Shown piece after piece: positions 2,966-54,863 of a stretch of 64,000 bases of DNA; the stretch's first letter is position 1, and every line of letters starts with the position of its first letter. The stretch is from assembly GCA_024613925.1 (NCBI GenBank), contig GCA_024613925.1_4713.1; one strand, 5' to 3'. The notes under the pieces are model-generated. The model searched no databases, was not told the origin of the DNA, and worked only from the letters and a program-made list of their open reading frames with translations. Both the position numbers and the translations under genes were made by a program. The stretch is from a phage.

Positions 2966-4552
2966 TTATTTTTTTCCTCTTAAATTTACTACGTGTTCAT
3001 TTAATCGAACAACTAATTGCACAAGCTGCTGACGGATATCTGCTGGACAAAGCATCAATCCCTTACGGTCAGCTGGGACTTTCTCAAGGATTTCCGGGCC
3101 TGCTGCTGAAACATCCCAGTCCCATTCACAAAACGCATCGGCCACCATGTTAATACCGACAACCGGTAAAGTTGTACGTTCATCTTCATACATGGCGTGT
3201 GGATACAATTTATTGACAGTAATGATCTCCTGTGGTTTTAATTGGTGGATAATCTGATAAACATCGTCACGTTTAACCTGGATGCCTACGGTCAGCGCTG
3301 CCAGTTGAGGAAAACCCCAATGGTCTAATAAGCAAGCTGCAATCGCTAACGCTTTTGCCTGATGCACGGCTTCAATCGGTGCCAGACTTCTCGCCGGAAG
3401 ATGGCTATCAAGCAACCATTGTGCCAGTGCTCGGCATCCACGGTTGATTGGTTTTAACTCAACGGTGTCATCATGTTTAGCGTACGTGTATCCGTCGTAA
3501 CGTTTTGCGATACGCGCATACATGTCTTCAACTTTACCGTAAGGTGCTGTTTCGTCGACGTCGTGCAACACACGTTCCATCTGGGTAAGATACGCGATAT
3601 CAAGAATGAGTACACGCGGTGAACGTTTATCTTTCACCATCAACGCATCAATCACGCCTTGACTGTCTTCATCTTGCGCGTTCCCTCGTGGGGTTTTCTC
3701 ACGAATCGGTCCACTGAAACGTCGTTCCGTACAAAGGTTATTCACATAGCTAAAGATCAGTGTTACCAGATGCGTACAACTCACCAACACCCCATCTTTA
3801 ACGACAGGCTGTACGGCTTGGTCCAAGTCGCGTACGGCGAGACGACGGACGATGGCTTGTGAACGCAACCAACCGGGCACTTTCTCCGTCGACATGTAAT
3901 CCACGGTCATCGACAGCGTGATCTTTTTATCACCCGTCTGTGCGCGGATATAATCTTCCAGTCGGTCGTAAGCGGCGATATCATGAATGCGTGTTTTATA
4001 CATCAACGACATAGCCACTTCTTCTTTACGGACTGTCCCGTACGTTTTCCCTGCGTCAATCAGAAACTCTGCCCAAATCGGCACCATCAGACGGACGTAG
4101 ATCGCTAACGCCGTTAACTCAACGTAATCATTTCGTAAATAGGTTTTCTCAGGTATGTCATCCTCACCTAATGTTGTTTTCATGTCCGGTGGTAATTTTA
4201 CCCAACCTGGGGTATTACACAACGCCAGAATCTCTTCATACACAACCGGTTTGTAAATTTCACCAACAGCGCGACTCAACTCCTCCATTTGTTGTTGTGG
4301 AGCAATGTAGTTATCCATCGCTTCACGTGCTTTAACGAACCCTTCGAAGATGTCGTCAATTCGACGTGGGTTCTTTTGTTCTATCCAGGCGAGATACTTG
4401 TTAATCTCCCGCATCTGATTACTAGCCATATCCCCATCGATCTTGATATAACCCTGACCTGAAAATTCCACAGTACGTCCATCACGGTGTTTGATGAGGT
4501 AGTGATCCAGCTTTTCTTTTCCTTGCGTCGTAATGACGGGCACTATGTGCAT
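2966..4552 (-). CDS. hypothetical protein
   Basis: Track ORF 2966..4687 shortened to internal ATG (MHIVPV...) preceded by GAGG at ~6 nt; early-promoter motif ~55 nt upstream. Confidence 0.5.
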   Translation of the reverse strand: MHIVPVITTQGKEKLDHYLIKHRDGRTVEFSGQGYIKIDGDMASNQMREINKYLAWIEQKNPRRIDDIFEGFVKAREAMDNYIAPQQQMEELSRAVGEIYKPVVYEEILALCNTPGWVKLPPDMKTTLGEDDIPEKTYLRNDYVELTALAIYVRLMVPIWAEFLIDAGKTYGTVRKEEVAMSLMYKTRIHDIAAYDRLEDYIRAQTGDKKITLSMTVDYMSTEKVPGWLRSQAIVRRLAVRDLDQAVQPVVKDGVLVSCTHLVTLIFSYVNNLCTERRFSGPIREKTPRGNAQDEDSQGVIDALMVKDKRSPRVLILDIAYLTQMERVLHDVDETAPYGKVEDMYARIAKRYDGYTYAKHDDTVELKPINRGCRALAQWLLDSHLPARSLAPIEAVHQAKALAIAACLLDHWGFPQLAALTVGIQVKRDDVYQIIHQLKPQEIITVNKLYPHAMYEDERTTLPVVGINMVADAFCEWDWDVSAAGPEILEKVPADRKGLMLCPADIRQQLVQLVVRLNEHVVNLRGKK

Positions 4553-4599
4553 AACAACCTCTTTTCGCGGTTCCCTGTTAAAACGTCTTCTGTGACGTC

Positions 4600-4625
4600 T
4601 ACCACAAAGGTAATATAAGCGTGAA
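4600..4625 (-). promoter_or_regulatory. early-promoter-like motif (minus-strand TATATTACCTTTGTGG)
   Basis: One of four near-identical copies of ..TATATTACCT(A/T).G..TG preceded by an A/T tract; resembles recalled phiKZ early promoter consensus TATATTAC. Confidence 0.45.
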
Positions 4626-4640
4626 TAATTTTGGATTCCG

Positions 4641-4658
4641 GCTGAGTTATCGCTCAGC
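4641..4658 (-). terminator. hairpin GCTGAG-TTATCG-CTCAGC downstream of gene 4757..5545
   Basis: 6-bp inverted repeat in intergenic region, followed (on minus strand) by the early-promoter motif. Confidence 0.3.
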
Positions 4659-4756
4659 ATGCAAGGCATCCCGCCGAAGCGAGACACCTTGCACTAACGG
4701 AAAATATTCGCGTTACCTTCTGAATCGGAGACTCAGAATGCGATGCTAAAGCATGA

Positions 4757-5545
4757 TTAGAACGCTAAGCCATCAAAGGCTACGGACGGATCATCGTCGT
4801 CATTTGCGCTTGGCGCATCCCAACGGGTATCAGGGGCCGCTGAAGCCGAACTTGATGCGTTAGAGTTACCGTTGTACTGGCCGTTACCAGCATTACGGTT
4901 ACCGCCGCCGTTGTTATTGTTACGGTTATAGCTATTGTTGCCATTACTTACGCTACGGCTTTCACCGTCGAAATTGGTTGCGAGGATGCTCGGCAACACC
5001 GCACGATGAATACGTACAAATTCCAACGCACAGAGCGGAGAAACAACCCCGATCTGTAAAGGTTGACCGGACTCATCAACCAGAGCGTGGAAACGCGGTG
5101 GCTTGAATACGAATTGGATGTTCGGTTTTTGGTACGCGGTTACAGCGATATATACCGAACCATCATCGTTCTTACCAACCCATGTTGTACTTTCGGTAAC
5201 CTGTTTCTTCTTACCTGGGTTATTGCGATCGTCGATAACCTTTTCGTTCTTCATCGCAAAACGTTGGCCTGGTTTACCCTTAGCAACCTGCTCGAGGATC
5301 GCAAGCAGGTTATAGAACGCGTATGAGCTCATGCGTGCCCAAATGCTTTCAGCGCGACCCTGCTGGTCTTTACGACCAGTGTAAACCGTGATACGCGGTT
5401 GATTCTTAGCAACGCTAATTTTCAATGAGGGGATTGAATTACCGCCCTCAACCTTTTCGTCCGCCCACAGTTTCCAGTTGTTGTCGTCATACGCTGTAGG
5501 AATAATGTTTCCTTGTGGTTTACTGCCCGAATTCCAATTGCTCAT
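4757..5545 (-). CDS. hypothetical protein with Asn/Gly-rich low-complexity tail and acidic C-terminus (SSB-like tail?)
   Basis: 262-aa ORF; GAGG RBS 7 nt upstream; C-terminus ...NNNNGGGNRNAGNG...DDDDPSVAFDGLAF reminiscent of SSB linker plus acidic tip, fold not verified. Confidence 0.5.
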   Translation of the reverse strand: MSNWNSGSKPQGNIIPTAYDDNNWKLWADEKVEGGNSIPSLKISVAKNQPRITVYTGRKDQQGRAESIWARMSSYAFYNLLAILEQVAKGKPGQRFAMKNEKVIDDRNNPGKKKQVTESTTWVGKNDDGSVYIAVTAYQKPNIQFVFKPPRFHALVDESGQPLQIGVVSPLCALEFVRIHRAVLPSILATNFDGESRSVSNGNNSYNRNNNNGGGNRNAGNGQYNGNSNASSSASAAPDTRWDAPSANDDDDPSVAFDGLAF

Positions 5546-5618
5546 TTTCAGCCTCGTTACGTAGTGTGAATCAATTTCTGGTTCAGATGATAGTCAATAT
5601 TAGTTAAAAATTACAGCC

Positions 5619-6416
5619 TCAGCGGAACATGTCCAACAGAAAACGTTTTGCGAAGGGGTCACGTAACTGGTTGACACCAAAGCGTGTACGGTCTTCCGTT
5701 GTTAGTGGATTCCATTGACTCTGTTTCGCAAGATCTAATAGCATCCTTTTTATTTTCACCGGCCCACTGTTGAACTGTACGGCTTGGTCACCGAACGTTC
5801 CCAATGTCATCTTTGTAAATGGAAGGTTCGCAACCTCTGGACGATCCCCACCAGTAAGTTTGGTTGACCACTGATGTTTTCGTTTCAAAGTTCCGGTATG
5901 GCTTTCTACCAAAATAAGTTCACCAAAACCGGTTCTTGCCAACAAGTCAGAAACATAGTGCGTGGTGATATACGATGTCTTGGTTATCGCGGGTAATTTA
6001 CAATCCATCGATTCGATATTAGGGAGTCGATCTACAGACGCCATCAACCCACGATAAAGTGTAGCGAGTCCTTTTTGTTTTTCGGTGTGTGGCTCCTTAT
6101 GTATAGCGTGCGGATAAACACGCTTTATTGACGCATAGGTTGGCGCATATATCCGCAAGCGAATATGGGGAACGAGTTCATTCACCAGCTGCCTTAGCTG
6201 TAGTAACTCGTTTTGAAAATCCCCTGTTATCATCGATAATGGTAATTTATGTTGTTCAACGTCTTCAAAGCTTTCAACGAAATTGCGTGCTAAAGTACGC
6301 AGGTTGAACAACCAATCCATCGGTGTTTCTGGCTGTTGCTGTACGGCTGATAATGTTGCAGACGTACCTACCGATAAAGGATAATCACCTAACGTGCGGG
6401 CGTACATATTGCTCAT
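5619..6416 (-). CDS. hypothetical protein
   Basis: Track ORF starts at TTG (6452); internal ATG at 6416 has AAGGAG 9 nt upstream, taken as likely start. Confidence 0.5.
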   Translation of the reverse strand: MSNMYARTLGDYPLSVGTSATLSAVQQQPETPMDWLFNLRTLARNFVESFEDVEQHKLPLSMITGDFQNELLQLRQLVNELVPHIRLRIYAPTYASIKRVYPHAIHKEPHTEKQKGLATLYRGLMASVDRLPNIESMDCKLPAITKTSYITTHYVSDLLARTGFGELILVESHTGTLKRKHQWSTKLTGGDRPEVANLPFTKMTLGTFGDQAVQFNSGPVKIKRMLLDLAKQSQWNPLTTEDRTRFGVNQLRDPFAKRFLLDMFR

Positions 6417-9211: not shown

Positions 9212-9288
9212 TCCGTTCTCCTCAAGCTTTTTCATTTCATAGAGTGGTGGAAATTCGTAGAAAGTTACAAAAATAAAAAAGAATGGGC

Positions 9289-9319
9289 AGCCTCTCCCCA
9301 CCCGAAGGTAGGGAGAGGC
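9289..9319 (-). terminator. intrinsic terminator-like hairpin with cUUCGg loop and U-rich tail (minus strand)
   Basis: GCCTCTCCC..GGGAGAGGC inverted repeat; on minus strand loop contains CTTCGG and is followed by TTCTTTTTTATTTTT. Confidence 0.45.
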
Positions 9320-9330
9320 CGCAAATATAT

Positions 9331-9795
9331 TTAAACCAAAGCTGCGATAACGTCGTTAACATTGCGGCCTCGCAACTCTGCCGCTAAACGAATAACTTCA
9401 TCCAGGGAACGGTTTGTACGAATCTTGGCCACTTTCCAATTTTCAGGATACTGTTCGAAGTTAAGCAACCAAGTCATTACCTTTGCTTGTTCCATACCGT
9501 TGAGTTTGATTGTCGTACGCGGATTGGCTTTGAACCACTTCTTGCTCAGCTGTGCCATACGGCGAACAGGGTAAGCGTAAGCGCGAGTCCAGTCTTTAGA
9601 CAGATTGTCGAGTAATTCACAGTAGCTGCTGTCGTAGTCTTTGTTGATACGACGTAATAACCAGTTGGCGGTCATCTGATAAAGTTTATCATCTTCGCGT
9701 AACCGCATACCTGCTACTGCTAAATAAATGATAAGACCTGCGCCCAGGATGAGAGACAGGATAAACAGAATTTGGGTTTCTTGTGCTAAAGTCAT
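9331..9795 (-). CDS. small membrane protein (one hydrophobic helix near N-terminus)
   Basis: ATG with GAGGA 7 nt upstream (MTLAQETQILFILSLILGAGLIIYLAV...); early-promoter motif ~90 nt upstream. Confidence 0.5.
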   Translation of the reverse strand: MTLAQETQILFILSLILGAGLIIYLAVAGMRLREDDKLYQMTANWLLRRINKDYDSSYCELLDNLSKDWTRAYAYPVRRMAQLSKKWFKANPRTTIKLNGMEQAKVMTWLLNFEQYPENWKVAKIRTNRSLDEVIRLAAELRGRNVNDVIAALV

Positions 9796-9879
9796 TTTAC
9801 TATCCTCGGATTTCATTAGGATTTAATTTCCAATATAAGGACTATGTGATATGCCTTATACAGTCGATTGATGTTGTAC

Positions 9880-9905
9880 ATCACCTAAGTAATATAGCCG
9901 TGAAA
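9880..9905 (-). promoter_or_regulatory. early-promoter-like motif (minus-strand GGCTATATTACTTAGGTG)
   Basis: Second copy of conserved TATATTAC-containing ~25-nt motif, upstream of gene 9331..9795. Confidence 0.45.
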
Positions 9906-9914
9906 AATGTTGGA

Positions 9915-10712
9915 TTAACGTGTTCTCCTATCCCGATGCGTATACGACTGAAGACCGATGTCCATATGCGGTAACGTTAGCGTCTGCCAGATCTGTCGTG
10001 CGTAGCGATCAAGCGTATGATCGTCAGTAACACAATCGACGGGTTCGATGAGGTGAGTCGTATACTGGCTTTTCTCAGAGAAAGGTTCGAGGTTAGCTGT
10101 ATCTCCTAATCCGCTTTTCACCGTGAAGACAAGACGTGTGACTATCATCGCTTTATGTTGCTGTTCATTATAACGAAGGCTGCGGTATACTGCATAGCTC
10201 CCTCCTTTTAAGCTTCGGGTATAACGAAGGTCGGAGGTCGTCTCGGAAATCTGATACAGCATCCAATCCAACGTATCTCGCCAGTACGCATCATCCACAT
10301 CAGGAACCGTAATACCGTACCGCGTAGGCAGCAATTCTAAAAGCAATTTATAAAGTCCGCGACGCAAGCCATGCTCTTCTGTTTCCGACAAGCCGTTTCC
10401 AACGTAACGTGAAATACGTGTACGTAAATACGTACGGATGAACATATTCGCCATCAGTGTTTTCACTCTGCTACTGGTATCCTCAAAGCGATCAACGCTG
10501 AAACTCGTTTCAATCAACCGTCCATTAAAATACAATGCGGCAACATACATCGCGTTATTACTATCACGTTCAATGTTTAAACGGCCGCAGATATTGGCTG
10601 CGTCGTTCATGGTAAATTCTAATTTATCGTGTTCGATACGATAGATAATATCCTCTTGGGTTGCTAGGCTCGCAATGCGACGATAGCCCGGAGAAGTACG
10701 TTTTACACTCAT
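9915..10712 (-). CDS. hypothetical protein
   Basis: Track ORF 9915..10751 trimmed to ATG (MSVKRT..) with AGGA 5 nt upstream; the track start ATG lies inside the TTTATGCCG motif. Confidence 0.45.
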   Translation of the reverse strand: MSVKRTSPGYRRIASLATQEDIIYRIEHDKLEFTMNDAANICGRLNIERDSNNAMYVAALYFNGRLIETSFSVDRFEDTSSRVKTLMANMFIRTYLRTRISRYVGNGLSETEEHGLRRGLYKLLLELLPTRYGITVPDVDDAYWRDTLDWMLYQISETTSDLRYTRSLKGGSYAVYRSLRYNEQQHKAMIVTRLVFTVKSGLGDTANLEPFSEKSQYTTHLIEPVDCVTDDHTLDRYARQIWQTLTLPHMDIGLQSYTHRDRRTR

Positions 10713-23009: not shown

Positions 23010-23330
23010 TCATTTTCTCCCTCTTCGAATACCACCGATACCTCTTTCGTCTAAGACGTCCCAAGCACGCTTTATTTCATCCTCCGTTGCTCTGGTATCT
23101 GGAGGGACAACCATAACACAGTCGTGGAATGGCCAATGTGCGGGTCTGGGGCTCGCGAACAAATCATCCCATTCAAATGTCCATTCTTTCTTTGAGCGAT
23201 TGTAGTAGAGCGTAAGGTACGTGTTGGTATACGCTGGATAACCACGCATAACTTCAATATCCTTACGATCCCGCCGTTCCTGATCCCAATCGTTAAACCG
23301 CTTTCTTATTTTCTCCCACCACTTTCCCAT
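23010..23330 (-). CDS. hypothetical protein
   Basis: 106-aa ORF; AGGAGAAAGC RBS; hairpin+TTTATGCCG element immediately upstream. Confidence 0.5.
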   Translation of the reverse strand: MGKWWEKIRKRFNDWDQERRDRKDIEVMRGYPAYTNTYLTLYYNRSKKEWTFEWDDLFASPRPAHWPFHDCVMVVPPDTRATEDEIKRAWDVLDERGIGGIRRGRK

Positions 23331-23352
23331 GCTTTCTCCTACGCGGCATAAA

Positions 23353-23374
23353 AGCCTGCCCCGAAGGACAGGCT
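23353..23374 (-). terminator. hairpin AGCCTG..CAGGCT with CUUCGG loop, followed on minus strand by TTTATGCCG
   Basis: Inverted repeat seen in sequence between genes 23384..23584 and 23010..23330. Confidence 0.4.
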
Positions 23375-23383
23375 CGATAGAAC

Positions 23384-23584
23384 TTAACGACCATCCAATT
23401 TCAATGAAGGATGGTTGACGATATGTGCGTGTTTTGCTGGGTCATATAGCTGATATGGAAAATAGCCATGCCATTGACGGCCTTGGCATTTCGTACACAG
23501 AAACTGACCAACACCTTGTCGATTCTCGTAAGCGAGTTCGGTACTATCAACATGTTCGCAACGTTCGCAGATAAACAGCGACAT
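23384..23584 (-). CDS. small zinc-ribbon protein
   Basis: 66 aa with two CxxC pairs (CERCEH ... CTKCQG); GGGGA RBS-like; immediately downstream of PhuZ gene. Confidence 0.45.
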   Translation of the reverse strand: MSLFICERCEHVDSTELAYENRQGVGQFLCTKCQGRQWHGYFPYQLYDPAKHAHIVNHPSLKLDGR

Positions 23585-23621
23585 AGCGCATCCCCATTCA
23601 CTTGAACCTTTTGGTTCGGCA

Positions 23622-24602
23622 TTAGAAAAGCAAGAAACCGCTATTCTTCGCTTCTGCTACAGTTTCGTCACCGACTTTCGGTGCTTGTTGACGTGCGTTA
23701 CGGTGTTCGATGTAACGTTTCGCTTCGTCCGCGATTTGTTTGATAATACCCCCTAAACGATCAGTACTTAAAACAAACGACGTCGCTTCACGAATTGGGC
23801 TGCTTTCAGGCACAAAACCATCGCAGCTGTAAATAGCGCTAACGCCCATGACTTTTGTCGCGTCTTTCGGATAAAGCGTACAGAAAGCAATCGGGCTATC
23901 GTTCTCTTTCGTCCAATCGTATCCCATGAACGTATTCAGTTCGGTGATCGTTGGTTCCAAACCGGTAACACGTGGATGGTTTAAGAAGTTTTCCAGGTCA
24001 GCGCTGTCAAGACGGCGGTTCTCGCCAGAAAACAGAACACAAAGCTGGCTGATAACAACCTGCACGTCCAGGTTGACATCCTGCTCCGATTTCCCATTTT
24101 CGCCATTCATGTGATAGCTAACAATCACTGGACGTTTCAACCCTTCTGCAGCTGCCATCAGTCCTTTGAAGGTGCGATCGGCGTTGATCGTTTGACGCTC
24201 ATCATCGAACGAGGCAACGATGCAACACACCACACGTTCACCGCGTTCCAGCAGGTTAGCAACCAACGCAGGACCGGCAACAGAACCTGAACCACCGCTC
24301 AAACTAAAGACCACGATATTAAATTTACCTGGCGTATGCTTATTGAGAATACCTGGGATTTGTGAACAGATCAGTTCAGCGTTCTCGTCACGCTTCTTAC
24401 CAGAACCGTCTAACTCACGACCGGCTGCATCTTTAAAGATGTAAATATGATCGTCGCCCAGTGTGCTATCGCGTAGGTTAGCGCGGCTGGTATCGACATA
24501 CGTCATGCTGTGTAATCCTTTCGCGACTTCGCCTTCAAATGCCGAGCCGATTTCGCCACCACAACCACCGACAGCCCAAATATGTACTTGGTTCTCTTGC
24601 AT
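23622..24602 (-). CDS. phuZ: PhuZ-like phage tubulin (FtsZ/tubulin superfamily GTPase)
   Basis: 326 aa; segment FSLSGGSGSVAGPALVANLL matches the tubulin/FtsZ GGGTGSG-type signature and the PhuZ pattern YSLGGGSGSV.GP recalled from 201phi2-1; N-terminal IWAVGGCGGEIG glycine-rich loop; AGGAG RBS. Confidence 0.7.
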   Translation of the reverse strand: MQENQVHIWAVGGCGGEIGSAFEGEVAKGLHSMTYVDTSRANLRDSTLGDDHIYIFKDAAGRELDGSGKKRDENAELICSQIPGILNKHTPGKFNIVVFSLSGGSGSVAGPALVANLLERGERVVCCIVASFDDERQTINADRTFKGLMAAAEGLKRPVIVSYHMNGENGKSEQDVNLDVQVVISQLCVLFSGENRRLDSADLENFLNHPRVTGLEPTITELNTFMGYDWTKENDSPIAFCTLYPKDATKVMGVSAIYSCDGFVPESSPIREATSFVLSTDRLGGIIKQIADEAKRYIEHRNARQQAPKVGDETVAEAKNSGFLLF

Positions 24603-24666
24603 GTGAACTCCTAACTTAATATGTATTTAACGCACAATGAATCTTTCTTTGCTAAAGGGGTGACCC

Positions 24667-25509
24667 ATGGGTGCTATTGACTACAGTGTAGATCGTATCT
24701 GTCGTACAATACCGGCAGATATCCTACAGTATTGCTATATCGATCGTTACGACTGGCGTAATCGCTATCCTCGTTCCGTAGAAGACATCATTACCGATTG
24801 GGTAATCCGTAAACGGGTTATCGGCGACATCGATATCTACGGGGGACTACAAACCGTTATCCCCCTTGATGATGCAGGTGTCACTATCGAAGAAGTCACC
24901 ATTAACTGTTATGTTTTCCACATTCCGTTGGAAGCCACGCAAGGACGTTACATCACGTCTGCATTATCCATTATTTCAGGGAGCGTGAACAACTACGGAA
25001 TAAACTATAACGGGCAATGGGGTGCTTTCAACCAAACCCAGTTTCAACGTCAGCTTTGTGGGTGGAACCCCGCAAGCAACACGTTACAGCAAGGGATGAA
25101 CGCATTCGGTCCCATGAACGTTCTTAGTACAGCCAACGTTGATATCATCGCCCCTAACACCATCATGGTGAACAACGTCACGCCTGTACAATTTCCCCTG
25201 AGTCTACGTTGTTTCCTTGCCCACGATCCGGAACTTACCAACCTCAGCATGGAGGTTTGGAACGACTTCTACAAACTCTGTTTATACGCCACACAAAGCG
25301 ACATCTACAACAGAACCGTTATCCGTCTTGACAGAGGTGTTACAGCACAAGGACAAGAAGTCGGTGCATTCAAGGAATACATCGATCGCTTTGCTGATGC
25401 TGAAAACACATATCAGGAATTCCTGAACGAAACGTGGGCTGGCGTTGCTGCCTGGAACGACCCACAAACTAAACGTCGCGCCATTCGATTACAAACCGGT
25501 TACTTCTGA
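24667..25509 (+). CDS. hypothetical protein
   Basis: 280-aa ORF divergent from phuZ; AAAGGGGTGA upstream of ATG. Confidence 0.5.
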   Translation: MGAIDYSVDRICRTIPADILQYCYIDRYDWRNRYPRSVEDIITDWVIRKRVIGDIDIYGGLQTVIPLDDAGVTIEEVTINCYVFHIPLEATQGRYITSALSIISGSVNNYGINYNGQWGAFNQTQFQRQLCGWNPASNTLQQGMNAFGPMNVLSTANVDIIAPNTIMVNNVTPVQFPLSLRCFLAHDPELTNLSMEVWNDFYKLCLYATQSDIYNRTVIRLDRGVTAQGQEVGAFKEYIDRFADAENTYQEFLNETWAGVAAWNDPQTKRRAIRLQTGYF

Positions 25510-50033: not shown

Positions 50034-51143
50034 TTATTTAGCGTCGTTAAAGTAAATATCAACAGCTCGTTCCGTTGCGTAGAGGAGACCAAGATTCACA
50101 GTCCCAACCACTTCCGGTGAACCGATGATACGGTTAGCGATACTGGTGCCACTGAAGATAGCATCAAGGGTGTGCCCGTCTTCGGTTTTGTTCACACCAT
50201 GACCCACGGAAGAGACAACGGATTTCGCTTGTGCTGCGAAGGTACCTTTATCACCCATCCCCGCACCAAGGTCGTAACGCATGAAAATACGGATAGCGAT
50301 CTGGTTCTCGCCTAACGGATTGCCGTCTATTCTCACGTTACTATTGTTGATACGCCCTGTTGCTGCCTCGTTGAGTTTCAGTTCCTTAACGCGTTTAGCT
50401 CGCGCTTTATCCGCTTCACCGACGAGCGCCGCCATGGTTTCACTCATATCCTCAATCTGAGCACGGTACAGTACATCGATCTGTACAACTTCACCATGAA
50501 CGTCAGCACGTGGGTTATACTGACTCATACGACGTAATGCTTCAACGGCTTCCTGACTCTCATCACTCAGATCGGTTGCAATCGGTTCTTCCAGTGTTGC
50601 AAGAATCGTTCGTGGTTCAACGTGATCACCGATTTTCACAAGACCACGAATATTGAGATGGGCGTCAACGATGAGCGTACGGCTCTTAATCGATGGTGTT
50701 ACGAGACGATCGGCAAGATTGTCGAAGATATACGAACTGTCCTCGTGCGTCTCTGGAATATCCAGAATACCGACAAGAGACAGCACACCTGCGCGCCAAA
50801 CAACCTGGCCTGGGTTCCACCAATCGCGTTTGAAATAAAGACGATGGAAAACCACCACATCCTGATCCTTAACGCGATCCCCGACTTTATAATCGGTAAT
50901 GAGATCGTGAGGATAATACTTACCTGGCCCTTTCCCGATTATCGTACCGAGCTGGAAAACCTCTTCCCCTAACTCTGGATCGTCGTATTGTATCGTAAGC
51001 GCAGTTTTGGTGACCTTCTTAACAACACCATCGCCTTGGGCGGCGGCCGCGAAGAGTTTACCAACACGATGCGCGATAACAGTCTCACCGCCGGTGCGCC
51101 ACGGTTGTACATCGTAACCCTCAGCGGCAATCATGCGGTTGTG
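50034..51143 (-). CDS. RNA polymerase beta subunit (virion RNAP candidate), proposed exon 2
   Basis: Track ORF 50034..51164 starts at TTG with no RBS; from HNRMIAAEG it resembles beta ANRALMGANMQRQ, then TGGETVIAHRVGKLFAAAAQGDGVVKKV vs [26 protein letters not shown], and GDKGTFAAQAKSVVS vs GDKMAGRHGNKGVIS (E. coli beta recalled). Confidence 0.5.
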   Translation of the reverse strand, partial: HNRMIAAEGYDVQPWRTGGETVIAHRVGKLFAAAAQGDGVVKKVTKTALTIQYDDPELGEEVFQLGTIIGKGPGKYYPHDLITDYKVGDRVKDQDVVVFHRLYFKRDWWNPGQVVWRAGVLSLVGILDIPETHEDSSYIFDNLADRLVTPSIKSRTLIVDAHLNIRGLVKIGDHVEPRTILATLEEPIATDLSDESQEAVEALRRMSQYNPRADVHGEVVQIDVLYRAQIEDMSETMAALVGEADKARAKRVKELKLNEAATGRINNSNVRIDGNPLGENQIAIRIFMRYDLGAGMGDKGTFAAQAKSVVSSVGHGVNKTEDGHTLDAIFSGTSIANRIIGSPEVVGTVNLGLLYATERAVDIYFNDAK

Positions 51144-51656
51144 CTGTATACCTATAAATACCAATCTCTTGGGCGAATTTAGTTCTTATTCAACATAATC
51201 GTACTATTACCAGAATAAGACTGAGATTAGATTGTTCAGATAAGGTCGTTAATCTTATCCCGGAGGCGACGATAGGCACATCACCTCCCGCTTGCGCTCT
51301 CACGCAAGAGCAGACTATATCACATCTCGTTTCAAACGGTGCTTCTTCAGCACCTCAACGAGAGTTCACTTCTTCCCAGCGCATCCAGCGCCATTCTCTT
51401 ATCCAAGGAGAATGCCTCACTCGAGGGGTACAGGGGGATGAATCCCTTAGTCGTTGAACCTTTACCTTAGAACGCTTCACAGCGATCCTTAGGTACTTGG
51501 CTGCGGATTGTCCTTAAGCTATTATCTGTTTTTATAACCATACCGTCTTTCTTTTCAGAATCCGTTTTGGTCGATAACAGCGATGGATGTCTTCGCAATT
51601 CAGTGAATCTCATCTACATGTCGCCACATAGACGGACCCTGCTATTAAAAGCGTTA
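51144..51656 (-). ncRNA. candidate group I intron in RNAP beta gene, inserted at conserved HDD/ANR motif
   Basis: 513 nt with no ORF; minus-strand P AAUUGCGAAGACAUCC (~51583-51602), Q AAUCCGCAGCC (~51495-51513), R GUUCAACGACUAAGG (~51436-51466), S GUGAUAUAGUCUG (~51305-51326) in order; UUGCG/CGCAG and GACUA/UAGUC complementary; exon 1 ends in U followed by UAA; G precedes exon 2; splice keeps frame (..DRDD-HNRM..); P1 pairing not identified. Confidence 0.5.
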
Positions 51657-54600
51657 ATCATCTCTATCAGCAGCAGGTACTGCAAGCGCCGACGTACTCA
51701 TTATTGACGAGCTACCATCCGTTTTCTCGTCGTAAGGTTTCGTTTCACCGTATACAGACACAATGTTTGCGTTAGGTGCGAGGTAAGCAGAAATACCTAC
51801 GTCCCCACTATCCTTCGTACCTTCGGATACAACACCAATGTCCGACTTGTCGTATTCACGATCGCGTGCGCGTCGAAGCGATGTCTTTGAACGACCCCCG
51901 ATACCGGTCATCGTCGCTTCTTCACCCTGCTTGATATCCAGCATCGGGTTGGTTTCATCGATTACGATGGAAGCGCTGTCGTCGAGAATCTGGTTCCAGA
52001 CGCTTACCGGACTGATTGAGATTTTCTGGCGGTTTCCTTGACTGCTGTTCTCATTCTGACGAATAGCGCCAACCAGATCCTTATACACCAACTCAGCGAA
52101 CTTATCGTACGTTTTAAAACGTTGGTAGTTCACATCGTTCGTGTTAGGTGCCCAATCATCCAGAAGCAGTTCGACGGCACGCAGTAACAACATGGCGAAA
52201 TCGGTAGGTTCTCCCATGTTCTGCAGCAACGTACGGCTTACCGGATCAACGAAAAGACGCTCCATGAGTTCAAGTTCGCGTAAATGGCGAACCTTAAGTC
52301 CAGCCCCATCGACAACGTTAAAATAGATATCTCGATTGTCAAAAGCGCCGCGAGCGTAACCAATGTAGTTACGGTATTCGTTAAACCCACCCAGCAACAA
52401 CGTCGTCATGCGATCGTCTTTACTGAAGATCAGACTTTCGTCGTCAAAGCTCACCGCGAATTCATCGGGTGCTAACCCCATACGAGAGCCGCGAGGTACC
52501 GTACGATAGTTCGCTTTAAGATGTTCTAATAACGGGGTAAGCCCACCCAGATAACTTAGAACAACACCGACCGGAATACGTACACCCATGAATTCAAGAT
52601 CGGCGGCTTCGATCGGCATCTTAGCCGCATTGATACCGAAGAAATCAGGGAACGTCCCTACAGGTGTTGGTGTTTGTCCTGACTGACAGATATAGAGCTG
52701 ATTGCGTTTATCGATTGCTAAGAATTCACCCAGCGTGTTACGCGCAAACGTCAGGAGTCCTTCGGCTAACTGTTCGTTGAACCGATCTTCCCCAATGAAC
52801 TCCGGCAATGTCTTTGTATCGAGACGTATATCCCAATCAGCAAATTGGATTTGGGTATAGTTGCGTGCAAGCACAGCGAAGTAATACGGAACTTTGACAG
52901 CTGGATCAAAGACGTTACCACGTTTCAACGTGGTTAAGGGTGAGGACTTATCGTAATACATCGCCGTAAGTTGACGTGTTAGCCAACGACCCGCATTATT
53001 AACGACACGCTCTGAACGTTTAACAAACACCTTACCGTAGGCGGTACTCAACGCAACTTCAGATGACGATACCTTTCTAATAGGTTTATCAACACGTTGT
53101 TTACGCATCCGGTATTTGATGCCGTTAACGACATAAATGCCGTCCTTACGAACCTTCGGCAACATCACCGGGAACGTGGTCGGGACACCGCCTACAGGAG
53201 CCAGTTTAATCGTGATGACTTGATAATCCCCCATCACGTCAACAACATCTTCAACTTTATATCCCGTGACAGGGTAACCTGCCTGCTGTACCGCAACGAC
53301 GGCAGCTGCGATGTCCTTTTGCATTACGTGTTCAACGTAATGTTTATCCCACACCGCAAGCGTCGATTTACACAGGCTCTTATCGACGATAACATCCGCT
53401 TCCGGCATAACCTTTGCAGGCGCTAATTTTGCGGCTTTTGGTTTAACTTCAACATACTCAGCAAGTGTTAATCCAGAACCGTCGGGTGCTTCGATTTCAT
53501 GGATGGCGTCAGCATTACGCATCGCTGCTTTATATTGGACACCGCTTAACTGACCCGCATCCGCCAGATCGCTCGCGCGTACCAACACCGCATCCGATAA
53601 CGACTGAATATATTCGCCATGCGTTTTCGGTAACGTTGCCGCGTCAAAGACATCAACCTTTTCTTCTTCGGTATCGTCGGTAACGACTTCGAAGAGATCG
53701 TCGGTAATGTCCTGATCTTCATCGGGCTGGAAATCTGGTTGTACTTCTACCCCGGGTACTTCACGGACATCTTCGAACGAGCGTTCTACAATGGCGTTCC
53801 ACGCATCGGCATCATCGTCTTCATCCGACCCACCGACCAACTCCGCTTCTAACTCGTCGGGATCAAGAACGGTAGCGAGATCCTCACCGTTAGGAAGCAC
53901 GACGTCGCGATCATCATACTCCGCATCCGGGCTGTCCGCAAGAATATCTCGCTCTTGACGAAGAACCTGTTCCTCTTCTTGTTTCTGTTCTTCTTCATTC
54001 GCGCTCTGCGACCACAGACGTGTTACCGCCATCATCCAACGACGTTGGAAGGTTTCAAGTGTCGTTTTATCGAGTTCTTCCCCTTCCTTCACAAGTCCGG
54101 TACGCCATTCTTCCAGCAGGCCGAGATTCAGCGTAAAGAAGTACACACCGTCTGTAAATACGATGTTAAGCTTATCCAGCGTGGCTCTGTCTAACGAAGC
54201 CATCGTGCTGTTCTCACGATCGGTTCCCAACCAGCGGAAGAAGTCAAAGAACGACAGCTCCTCCGGTGTGGCGAAATTCATGAGGTTATTACGGGTCGGT
54301 GCCTGTTGCGTGGTACGCATCAACGAAATCTTCGGCAATGTTGACGGTATACGGAACAACAAAAAGTGTTGGCGATCGCTTTGCTGTGCGATTTCGTTGG
54401 CTTTCGACCAAATTGTTTTACGTACGTTGAACCATTCATCATACCAACGGGTGAGCGTTGGACGATAAATGTACATGTGGTTAAGATGCGCGTAGTTAGC
54501 AACGATCTGAGCGTTGATGTTTTTCTCCACCGTGCTTAGATCGGTAACCAAACGAAAACGACGATGTGATGCACGATAATCCAATTTCGCTCGTGGGAGT

Positions 54601-54863
54601 TGGAATCGTTGATCACGTCGAGGTGCACCCTGTTTGGTTGCGAGATCATCAGCAAACGAAATCCATAGTTGAGCACTTTCTTTACTCAGCATGTATTCGT
54701 TTTCTGGAGGACCTATCAATGAAGGATCCGTTGCGGTGTAATGATAGACAGCATAACGCGGCAGCTGCAATAGCTGCACTAAACGTAATCTTGGTGATAG
54801 TAACTCTTGGTAGCGTCTGACACCAAACTGTCGGTAGTAATCAAGGTATTTAAGTTTTGCCAT
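51657..54863 (-). CDS. RNA polymerase beta subunit (virion RNAP candidate), exon 1
   Basis: 1069 aa; C-terminal DETNPMLDIKQGEEATMTGIGGRS resembles beta Rif-region [24 protein letters not shown]; ends ..SALAVPAADRDD like ..ASLIPFLEHDD; AGLKVRHLRELELMERL resembles VGLVRVERAVKERL; GGAG RBS; long acidic insert. Confidence 0.5.

Follow-up and report, generated by a model that had tools for sequence, protein, structure and literature searches.

A Goslar-type phuZ gene is followed by a small zinc-ribbon gene of a widespread phage family that shows no sign of depending on PhuZ

The phage DNA analyzed here is a stretch of 64,000 nucleotides (nt) from GenBank assembly GCA_024613925.1 (contig GCA_024613925.1_4713.1), referred to below as the window. 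At positions 23622 to 24602 it carries a gene for the phage tubulin PhuZ, and immediately downstream on the same strand lies a gene, called zn here, for a small zinc-ribbon protein (Zn; gp200 in the GenBank numbering of the Escherichia jumbo phage vB_EcoM_Goslar). The original prediction, made from the window alone, had described a PhuZ-like tubulin of 326 amino acids (aa) with a GTP-binding-like segment and a co-oriented 66-aa CxxC...CxxC protein encoded 37 nt downstream, and had proposed that the latter may be a regulator or cofactor. Both open reading frames (ORFs) were confirmed, and the larger one contains NIVVFSLSGGSGSVAGPALV. The DNA of this region was 97.7% identical to positions 180133 to 182834 of Goslar, which identifies the source of the window as a close relative of Goslar that is distinct from the reference isolate. 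On the other side of phuZ lies a divergent gene for a DUF7484 protein; its Goslar counterpart, gp233, is the portal adaptor of the virion (10.64898/2026.04.21.720040). The features of the locus are listed in Table 1.

Table 1. Genes and signals at the phuZ-zn locus of the window
Feature	Position	Strand	Description
phuZ	23622..24602	-	326-aa phage tubulin; identical to Goslar gp201 (GenBank) / gp234 (RefSeq) bar one substitution
Shine-Dalgarno-like AGGAG	24608..24612	-	5 nt from the phuZ ATG; read from the sequence
phuZ-zn spacer, 37 nt	23585..23621	-	GGGGA ribosome-binding site at 23591-23595; no hairpin or terminator
zn	23384..23584	-	66-aa Cys4 zinc-ribbon protein; Goslar gp200 (GenBank) / gp235 (RefSeq)
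Intrinsic terminator directly after zn	23347..23375	-	10-bp stem AGCCUGUCC(UUCG)GGGCAGGCU, then UUUAU
DUF7484 gene, portal adaptor (neck) protein	24667..25509	+	Goslar gp233; divergent from phuZ; PF24302, E 1.4e-87

The large ORF contains NIVVFSLSGGSGSVAGP, and residues 1 to 323 of its product matched the PHROG profile phrog_4733, "tubulin PhuZ," with an E value of 2.9e-68. The score against the Pfam Tubulin family (PF00091), 29.9 bits, fell slightly below the 33-bit gathering cutoff, as is usual for divergent PhuZ proteins. The Goslar PhuZ structure (PDB 9pm9/9pmk) was matched at an E value of 4e-220 (9pm9_C); the two proteins are alike in 325 of 326 residues, with D229 of the window in place of E as the sole difference, and their genes share the same genomic context. 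These data fully support the prediction of a PhuZ-like tubulin. Matches to the PhuZ proteins of phiKZ (gp39; 3zbp, E 8e-29) and 201phi2-1 (gp59; 3r4v/3j5v, with E 6e-15 for 3r4v) were also obtained. These two proteins, which form a bipolar spindle instead of a vortex, have about 26 to 31% identity to the window protein and share its G-box, T7 aspartates, and C-terminal tail.

The signature residues were located in an alignment of 15 PhuZ sequences with 25 to 56% identity to the window protein. Invariant across all 15 were G12 and G13 of the T1 loop, G103 and G106 of the T4 signature, N140, and D199 and D202 of the T7 loop, the last two being the acidic residues for GTP hydrolysis in the filament. 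The T1 loop, a G-G-x-G motif near the N terminus, reads V11-G12-G13-C14-G15-G16. The T4 loop, the counterpart of the GGGTGSG-like GTP-binding signature, reads S102-G-G-S-G-S-V108, of which G103 to V108 were invariant within a subset of 8 PhuZ sequences. The C terminus, ...GDETVAEAKNSGFLLF, aligned with the D-D-G-hydrophobic tails of other PhuZ proteins. A PhuZ tail of this acidic and hydrophobic kind is used in longitudinal filament contacts, as deduced from work on 201phi2-1. The large gene product therefore carries the T1 loop, the T4 loop, the T7 acidic residues, the family match, and the C-terminal tail of a PhuZ.

Goslar PhuZ itself has a solved structure (9pm9/9pmk) and a published vortex function. 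A GFP-PhuZ fusion formed a filament vortex by which the phage nucleus is rotated, the D202A mutant gave hyperstable filaments and a dominant-negative phenotype, and the wild-type protein polymerized by itself in uninfected Escherichia coli above a threshold expression level. By its sequence, the large gene is the already characterized GTP-dependent tubulin PhuZ of Goslar, with nothing new in the gene itself. GTP-dependent filament formation by the window protein would be expected from this literature, which concerns a protein one residue different.

The product of zn (MSLFICERCEHVDSTELAYENRQGVGQFLCTKCQGRQWHGYFPYQLYDPAKHAHIVNHPSLKLDGR) reads MSLFICERCEHVDS...FLCTKCQGRQWHG... and has two CxxC knuckles, C6xxC9 and C30xxC33. 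A single-sequence, word-indexed search with these 66 residues returned one close cluster only, and a profile built from tblastn matches was needed to recover the family. The tblastn homologues, with 32 to 43% identity, came from Xanthomonas phages RTH11, LucasX, and Xoo-sp14, Erwinia phage pEa_SNUABM_54, and Pseudomonas phage pPa_SNUABM_DT01. Searching with the family profile then yielded 70 protein clusters, all of 61 to 77 aa and many on contigs of 220 to 270 kb, and an exhaustive phmmer search of 1.84 billion representative proteins gave 101 matches at an E value of 1e-3 or below. The family consists of 60- to 80-aa, mostly acidic proteins and comprises more than 100 clusters at 50% identity. 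Among 165 aligned members, C6, C30, and C33 were present in all 165 and C9, W38, and H39 in 164; F4, D13, G36, F42, Y47, and N57 were each found in 126 to 153. Two conserved CxxC knuckles about 15 to 25 residues apart are what defines a generic Cys4 zinc ribbon, and zn has them. An AlphaFold2 model built from the family alignment reached a predicted local distance difference test (pLDDT) value of 84.3 and consisted of a zinc knuckle plus an extended, well-packed C-terminal segment, with the first knuckle on a beta-hairpin. The protein is thus predicted to be a single, zinc-binding Cys4 ribbon with a conserved aromatic cluster of W38, H39, F42, and Y47. Its family is mostly acidic in composition (median isoelectric point [pI], 5.35; median net charge, -4; pI below 6 in 73% of members), and no basic residue was conserved among the invariant columns of the 165-member alignment.

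Within the clade of Xoo-sp14, the ratio of nonsynonymous to synonymous substitution rates (dN/dS) of zn was 0.04 to 0.39. Because of this ratio, the more than 100 homologous clusters, the invariant Cys4 set, the confident model, and the ribosome-binding site, zn is judged to be a real gene under purifying selection. The idea that the 66-aa ORF arose by chance in the 3' untranslated region of phuZ, which its shortness and the missing annotation in at least one relative (RTH11) might suggest, is refuted by the same conservation data, including the near-invariant W38-H39 pair, and has virtually no chance of being correct.

Approximately 60% of the family end in a C-terminal tripeptide of the type S/G-F/L-S/G, which may be a docking or degradation motif; among 212 members, SFS occurred 52 times, GLG 26, SLG 17, GLS 16, and SFG 13. 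The Goslar-type protein ends in ...LKLDGR, without this tripeptide. In the GenBank record of RTH11 (OQ790161), the zinc-ribbon gene (66 aa, MNDLFVCDTCNNIDALDF..., approximately 4995 to 5192 on the plus strand) is unannotated, and an annotated coding sequence at 5111..5671 overlaps part of it. A 226-aa metagenomic protein, P0105, has the zinc-ribbon domain at residues ~155 to 215, after a 150-aa N-terminal region that matched nothing in Pfam; the ribbon is either fused to this region or the gene is miscalled.

Database searches placed zn in no curated family. In Pfam, the zinc-ribbon families Elf1, Gin, TFIIB, DNL, and PHD were considered and none reached its gathering threshold; the subthreshold matches (Zn_ribbon_Elf1, E 0.001 and 19.5 bits against a cutoff of 29.8; Gin, E 0.003; Zn_Ribbon_TF, E 0.2) were confined to the CxxC knuckles. 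NCBIfam gave no match, a profile search of the PDB gave generic zinc fingers only, and BFVD returned only unannotated members of the same family. Pfam searches with longer or fused family members were uninformative. A PHROG match to the "transposase" phrog_1191 (E 5.6e-4) was rejected as a generic knuckle match. No paper on Goslar gp200/gp235 or on a PhuZ-linked zinc ribbon was found in a literature search, in agreement with the original suggestion that such a neighbor of PhuZ is undescribed; the items on "gp200" that came up concern PhiPA3 gp200, an unrelated protein. Judged from these searches, the zn family is a new one, widespread in phages and absent from curated families.

In the window, ribosome-binding sites precede both genes (AGGAG for phuZ and GGGGA for zn), and no hairpin with a U-tract was found between them. 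The first terminator follows zn: the folding energy of the 61 nt around it is -22.6 kcal/mol (z, -2.1), and Goslar carries a terminator annotation at this site. An automatic terminator scan missed this signal, which was confirmed by reading of the sequence, by folding, and by the Goslar annotation. Because a strong terminator lies after zn and none lies between the genes, phuZ and zn in Goslar-type phages look like one bicistronic unit, from which co-transcription would follow. Very stable hairpins (-23.6 to -26 kcal/mol) occur in the 55- to 72-nt phuZ-zn spacers of RTH11 (L002), L024, and L052 and are absent in the Goslar type. Co-transcription is therefore not universal, and these hairpins may be attenuators through which zn is expressed less than phuZ.

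We then asked how often zn adjoins phuZ, using samples drawn from each gene. The 15-sequence PhuZ alignment and a diverse Zn alignment had no conserved stretch of 7 to 10 columns, and the PhuZ-side sample was 65 IMG/VR loci obtained with the 8-sequence PhuZ subset, a sample biased toward PhuZ proteins with the motif [FY][ST]x[SG]GGSGSV. A zn family member was present in 30 of these loci, starting about 8 to 90 nt past the phuZ stop codon in 29 and 632 nt past it in 1. Three loci had no downstream DNA, so that zn was adjacent to phuZ in 29 of 62 informative loci. With PhuZ made nonredundant at 70%, zn was adjacent in 22 lineages, separated in 1, and missing in 29. Conservation of the gene in relatives, one of the original expectations, therefore holds for about half of the PhuZ lineages, where zn lies directly downstream of phuZ, but not for the 29 lineages that lack it. 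In a neighbor-joining PhuZ tree, zn-bearing lineages were spread across several deep clades and interleaved with zn-less ones, a scattered distribution that fits an old association with repeated loss. Where zn was missing from the IMG/VR loci, no nonhomologous small CxxC ORF was found after phuZ.

The zn-side sample consisted of 53 true matches to a degenerate DNA pattern, which needs G36, F42, and Y47 and so undersamples divergent members. PhuZ was encoded upstream, on the same strand and within 3 kb, in all 36 loci that contained it; 17 of these had the genes adjacent (gap of -1 to 93 nt) and 19 had them separated by 0.5 to 3 kb, although the 36 include repeats of the same sequence and are not independent events. 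Individual metagenomic contigs had the same order of adaptor gene (minus strand), phuZ, and zn. The genes that follow zn were mostly singletons at a BLAST E value of 1e-5, up to the SH3DP, DNA polymerase, and chimallin genes. In 45 of 51 loci, the adaptor gene adjoined phuZ in divergent orientation, making it a more constant neighbor of phuZ than zn is.

Several lines of evidence bear on whether zn depends on PhuZ. Many phages have PhuZ without zn: a six-frame hidden Markov model scan of 12 to 20 kb around phuZ detected no zn in phiKZ, PhiEaH1, RP12, SA002, Aphrodite1, or PCH45, and phiKZ, unlike the window, has no zinc-ribbon gene within 20 kb of phuZ. The converse was also found. Searches by tblastn with the Goslar and LucasX PhuZ proteins detected no PhuZ anywhere in the Xoo-sp14 genome; among Xanthomonas records, only LucasX and RTH11 were positive. 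The segment at 3717 to 5195 of Xoo-sp14 (MT939492) lacks phuZ and comprises, in this order, an adaptor-like gene on the minus strand, a gene for an unrelated 132-aa protein, and an intact zn. This 132-aa product is similar neither to PhuZ nor to the protein that LucasX encodes at the corresponding place. The same PhuZ-less arrangement was present in at least five relatives in IMG/VR. Since zn is intact in this clade and its dN/dS is low, zn is maintained there without PhuZ.

The two genes can also be far apart. The adaptor gene and phuZ of pEa_SNUABM_54 (MW879341) are together at 146 to 148 kb, and zn is found at 216.6 kb; the order is broken precisely between phuZ and zn, which are 69 kb apart. 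In this phage and in related metagenomic contigs, zn still precedes the SH3DP / DNA polymerase / chimallin block. The DT01-type clade has 0.5 to 3 kb between the genes, with insertions of 1 to 3 kb whose genes include one for an I-TevI-like homing endonuclease. On one contig (that of P0035; JGI 3300059473), positions 9246 to 10004 encode a 252-aa protein that includes an I-TevI DNA-binding domain; its gene overlaps the downstream zn by 4 nt, and PhuZ is encoded 3.7 kb upstream. Homologues of the zinc-ribbon core were further found without PhuZ in Vibrio phages GR11A (195 kb) and 1.191.O (48 kb) and in viral contigs of approximately 57 to 60 kb, where their neighbors are early or recombination genes (RusA, NUDIX, DUF5131, and SNF2).

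Distances in a mirror-tree comparison correlated less between PhuZ and Zn (r = 0.54) than between PhuZ and the adaptor (r = 0.77). The partial correlation of PhuZ and Zn given the adaptor was 0.12, and that of PhuZ and the adaptor given Zn was 0.66. No column of the PhuZ alignment cleanly tracked the presence of zn, in a comparison confounded by phylogeny. Neither the co-occurrence expected of an obligatory PhuZ partner nor co-evolution beyond genome history was therefore observed. The adaptor and PhuZ, adjacent in 45 of 51 loci, have unrelated functions, so conserved adjacency does not imply shared function here. A conserved block order in chimallivirus genomes has been described in the literature, and these data show that adjacency in such genomes reflects block order; they serve as a warning that it is no proof of a common function. 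Overall, zn shows no sign of depending on PhuZ, and the comparisons speak against an obligatory PhuZ role. The proposal that it encodes a regulator or cofactor of PhuZ is thereby weakened.

The reading that we prefer, with confidence that is about evenly balanced, is that gp200 binds other proteins as a small, mostly acidic module with a single zinc, acting independently of PhuZ and owing its place beside phuZ to inheritance. In this model, the phuZ of a Goslar-like chimallivirus is joined by a small accessory gene whose position behind phuZ would date from early in chimallivirus evolution. The order phuZ-zn would have been inherited, and it would mark the border of a hypervariable region filled with small early genes, a region bounded by the adaptor/phuZ pair on one side and the SH3DP / DNA polymerase / chimallin block on the other. 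In Goslar-type phages, gp200 would be expressed from a transcript shared with PhuZ, and its target would be a host or phage protein other than PhuZ, making it an accessory or host takeover factor. A protein-binding rather than a nucleic acid-binding function is expected because the family is mostly acidic and about 60% of its members carry the C-terminal tripeptide.

Several points weigh against this reading. The role of protein-binding accessory factor was inferred from composition and size alone, structure and profile searches with zn gave no functional lead, and the mirror-tree test has low power for a 66-aa protein. In addition, zn is the only conserved gene at the phuZ-proximal edge of the hypervariable stretch, and in several lineages phuZ and zn overlap or lie 8 to 13 nt apart, which suggests translational coupling.

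The last two observations would be explained if gp200 were a PhuZ accessory factor, a possible but less probable reading. The protein would be made with PhuZ and would bind its monomers or filaments in about half of the lineages, being dispensable elsewhere. It could nucleate or cap filaments, anchor them to a membrane or to the shell, or link them to cargo, and it would tune their dynamics or architecture. Tight same-strand adjacency is kept while PhuZ diverges to 25 to 30% identity, the genes of several clades are -1 to 13 nt apart, as coupled translation would allow, zn persists while the neighboring downstream genes turn over, and the window has its strong terminator after zn and none before it. 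A small acidic protein with a conserved C-terminal tail would be the kind of module that docks on cytoskeletal proteins. PhuZ assemblies vary by phage, as spindle or vortex and as 3- or 5-stranded filaments, which leaves room for lineage-specific factors. However, zn is under purifying selection in the PhuZ-less Xoo-sp14 clade, is unlinked from phuZ in pEa_SNUABM_54, has homologues in other phages without PhuZ, and is missing from many phages with PhuZ. Co-evolution beyond genome history was not detected, no PhuZ column tracks zn, and strong hairpins separate the genes in RTH11, L024, and L052. Goslar GFP-PhuZ also forms filaments in uninfected E. coli, where gp200 is absent.

A stronger version, which we regard as doubtful, is that gp200 is the first known PhuZ-associated protein, translated from the shared message and docking on PhuZ through its aromatic patch or its C-terminal tail. 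By controlling how filaments nucleate, are capped, or are anchored, it would contribute to the choice between the vortex of Goslar-type phages, which have zn, and the bipolar spindle of phiKZ-type phages, which do not; in PhuZ-less lineages it would have a second function. The literature search brought up no accessory protein that binds PhuZ. As the most persistent downstream neighbor of phuZ in chimalliviruses, zn is of modest value in itself, and gp200 is a cheap candidate to test in Goslar and E. coli, where GFP fusions and CRISPRi-ART knockdowns exist.

The TubZ systems of Bacillus plasmids and Clostridium phage c-st offer a comparison, in that small accessory genes for the TubR adaptor and the TubY modulator accompany the tubulin gene in one operon, as zn accompanies phuZ. 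TubR and TubY have helix-turn-helix folds instead of zinc ribbons, and profile and structure searches found no sequence or fold similarity of gp200 to either. The evidence for independence from PhuZ argues against an obligatory partnership of the TubZ type for zn.

It is improbable that gp200 is a nucleic acid-binding or transcription-related zinc ribbon, a small regulator with DNA, RNA, or an RNA polymerase as its target, in the manner of the Elf1, TFIIB, and Gin/CsfB ribbons. The weak similarities to Elf1, Gin, and Zn_Ribbon_TF and the location of zn in an early or replication-type gene block would fit such a role, but the Pfam matches stay below curated thresholds and cover CxxC knuckles only. 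The acidity of the family, the lack of conserved basic residues among the invariant columns, and the failure to find a structural match to nucleic acid-binding ribbons also argue against it. The Bacillus subtilis anti-sigma factor Gin/CsfB (PF10764) resembles gp200 in its length of about 50 to 70 aa and its two CxxC knuckles. The match between them (18 bits, under the 27-bit family cutoff) spans residues 3 to 11 and a single knuckle, however, and Gin has neither the W-H/F/Y core nor the C-terminal tail of the gp200 family. Gin acts by binding protein, so that a Gin-like binding of a sigma factor or RNA polymerase would belong with the preferred reading of gp200 as a protein-binding module.

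Beyond the terminator that follows zn lies a 106-aa gene (23010 to 23330, minus strand), the counterpart of Goslar gp199 (GenBank) / gp236 (RefSeq). It matched phrog_5903, which has no assigned function there (E 2.8e-18), and a 120-nt part of it was 78% identical to the 112-kb Escherichia phage KookSpook.

Elsewhere in the window, a group I intron was detected at 51291 to 51658 on the minus strand (Rfam RF00028; 56.2 bits, E 1.4e-11), between the minus-strand ORFs 51654..54863 and 50034..51164. Relative to Goslar positions 207490 to 209407, approximately 480 additional bases lie within the window's copy of a gene named "RNA polymerase beta subunit" in RefSeq, so that this relative has the intron and the reference lacks it. 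Beside the intron, a 32-nt stretch at about 51233 to 51264 was 100% identical in approximately 40 records of Escherichia, Shigella, Klebsiella, or Salmonella phages, the three listed being 167 to 170 kb, the size of T4-like phages. This stretch may be a shared element associated with an intron or a homing endonuclease.

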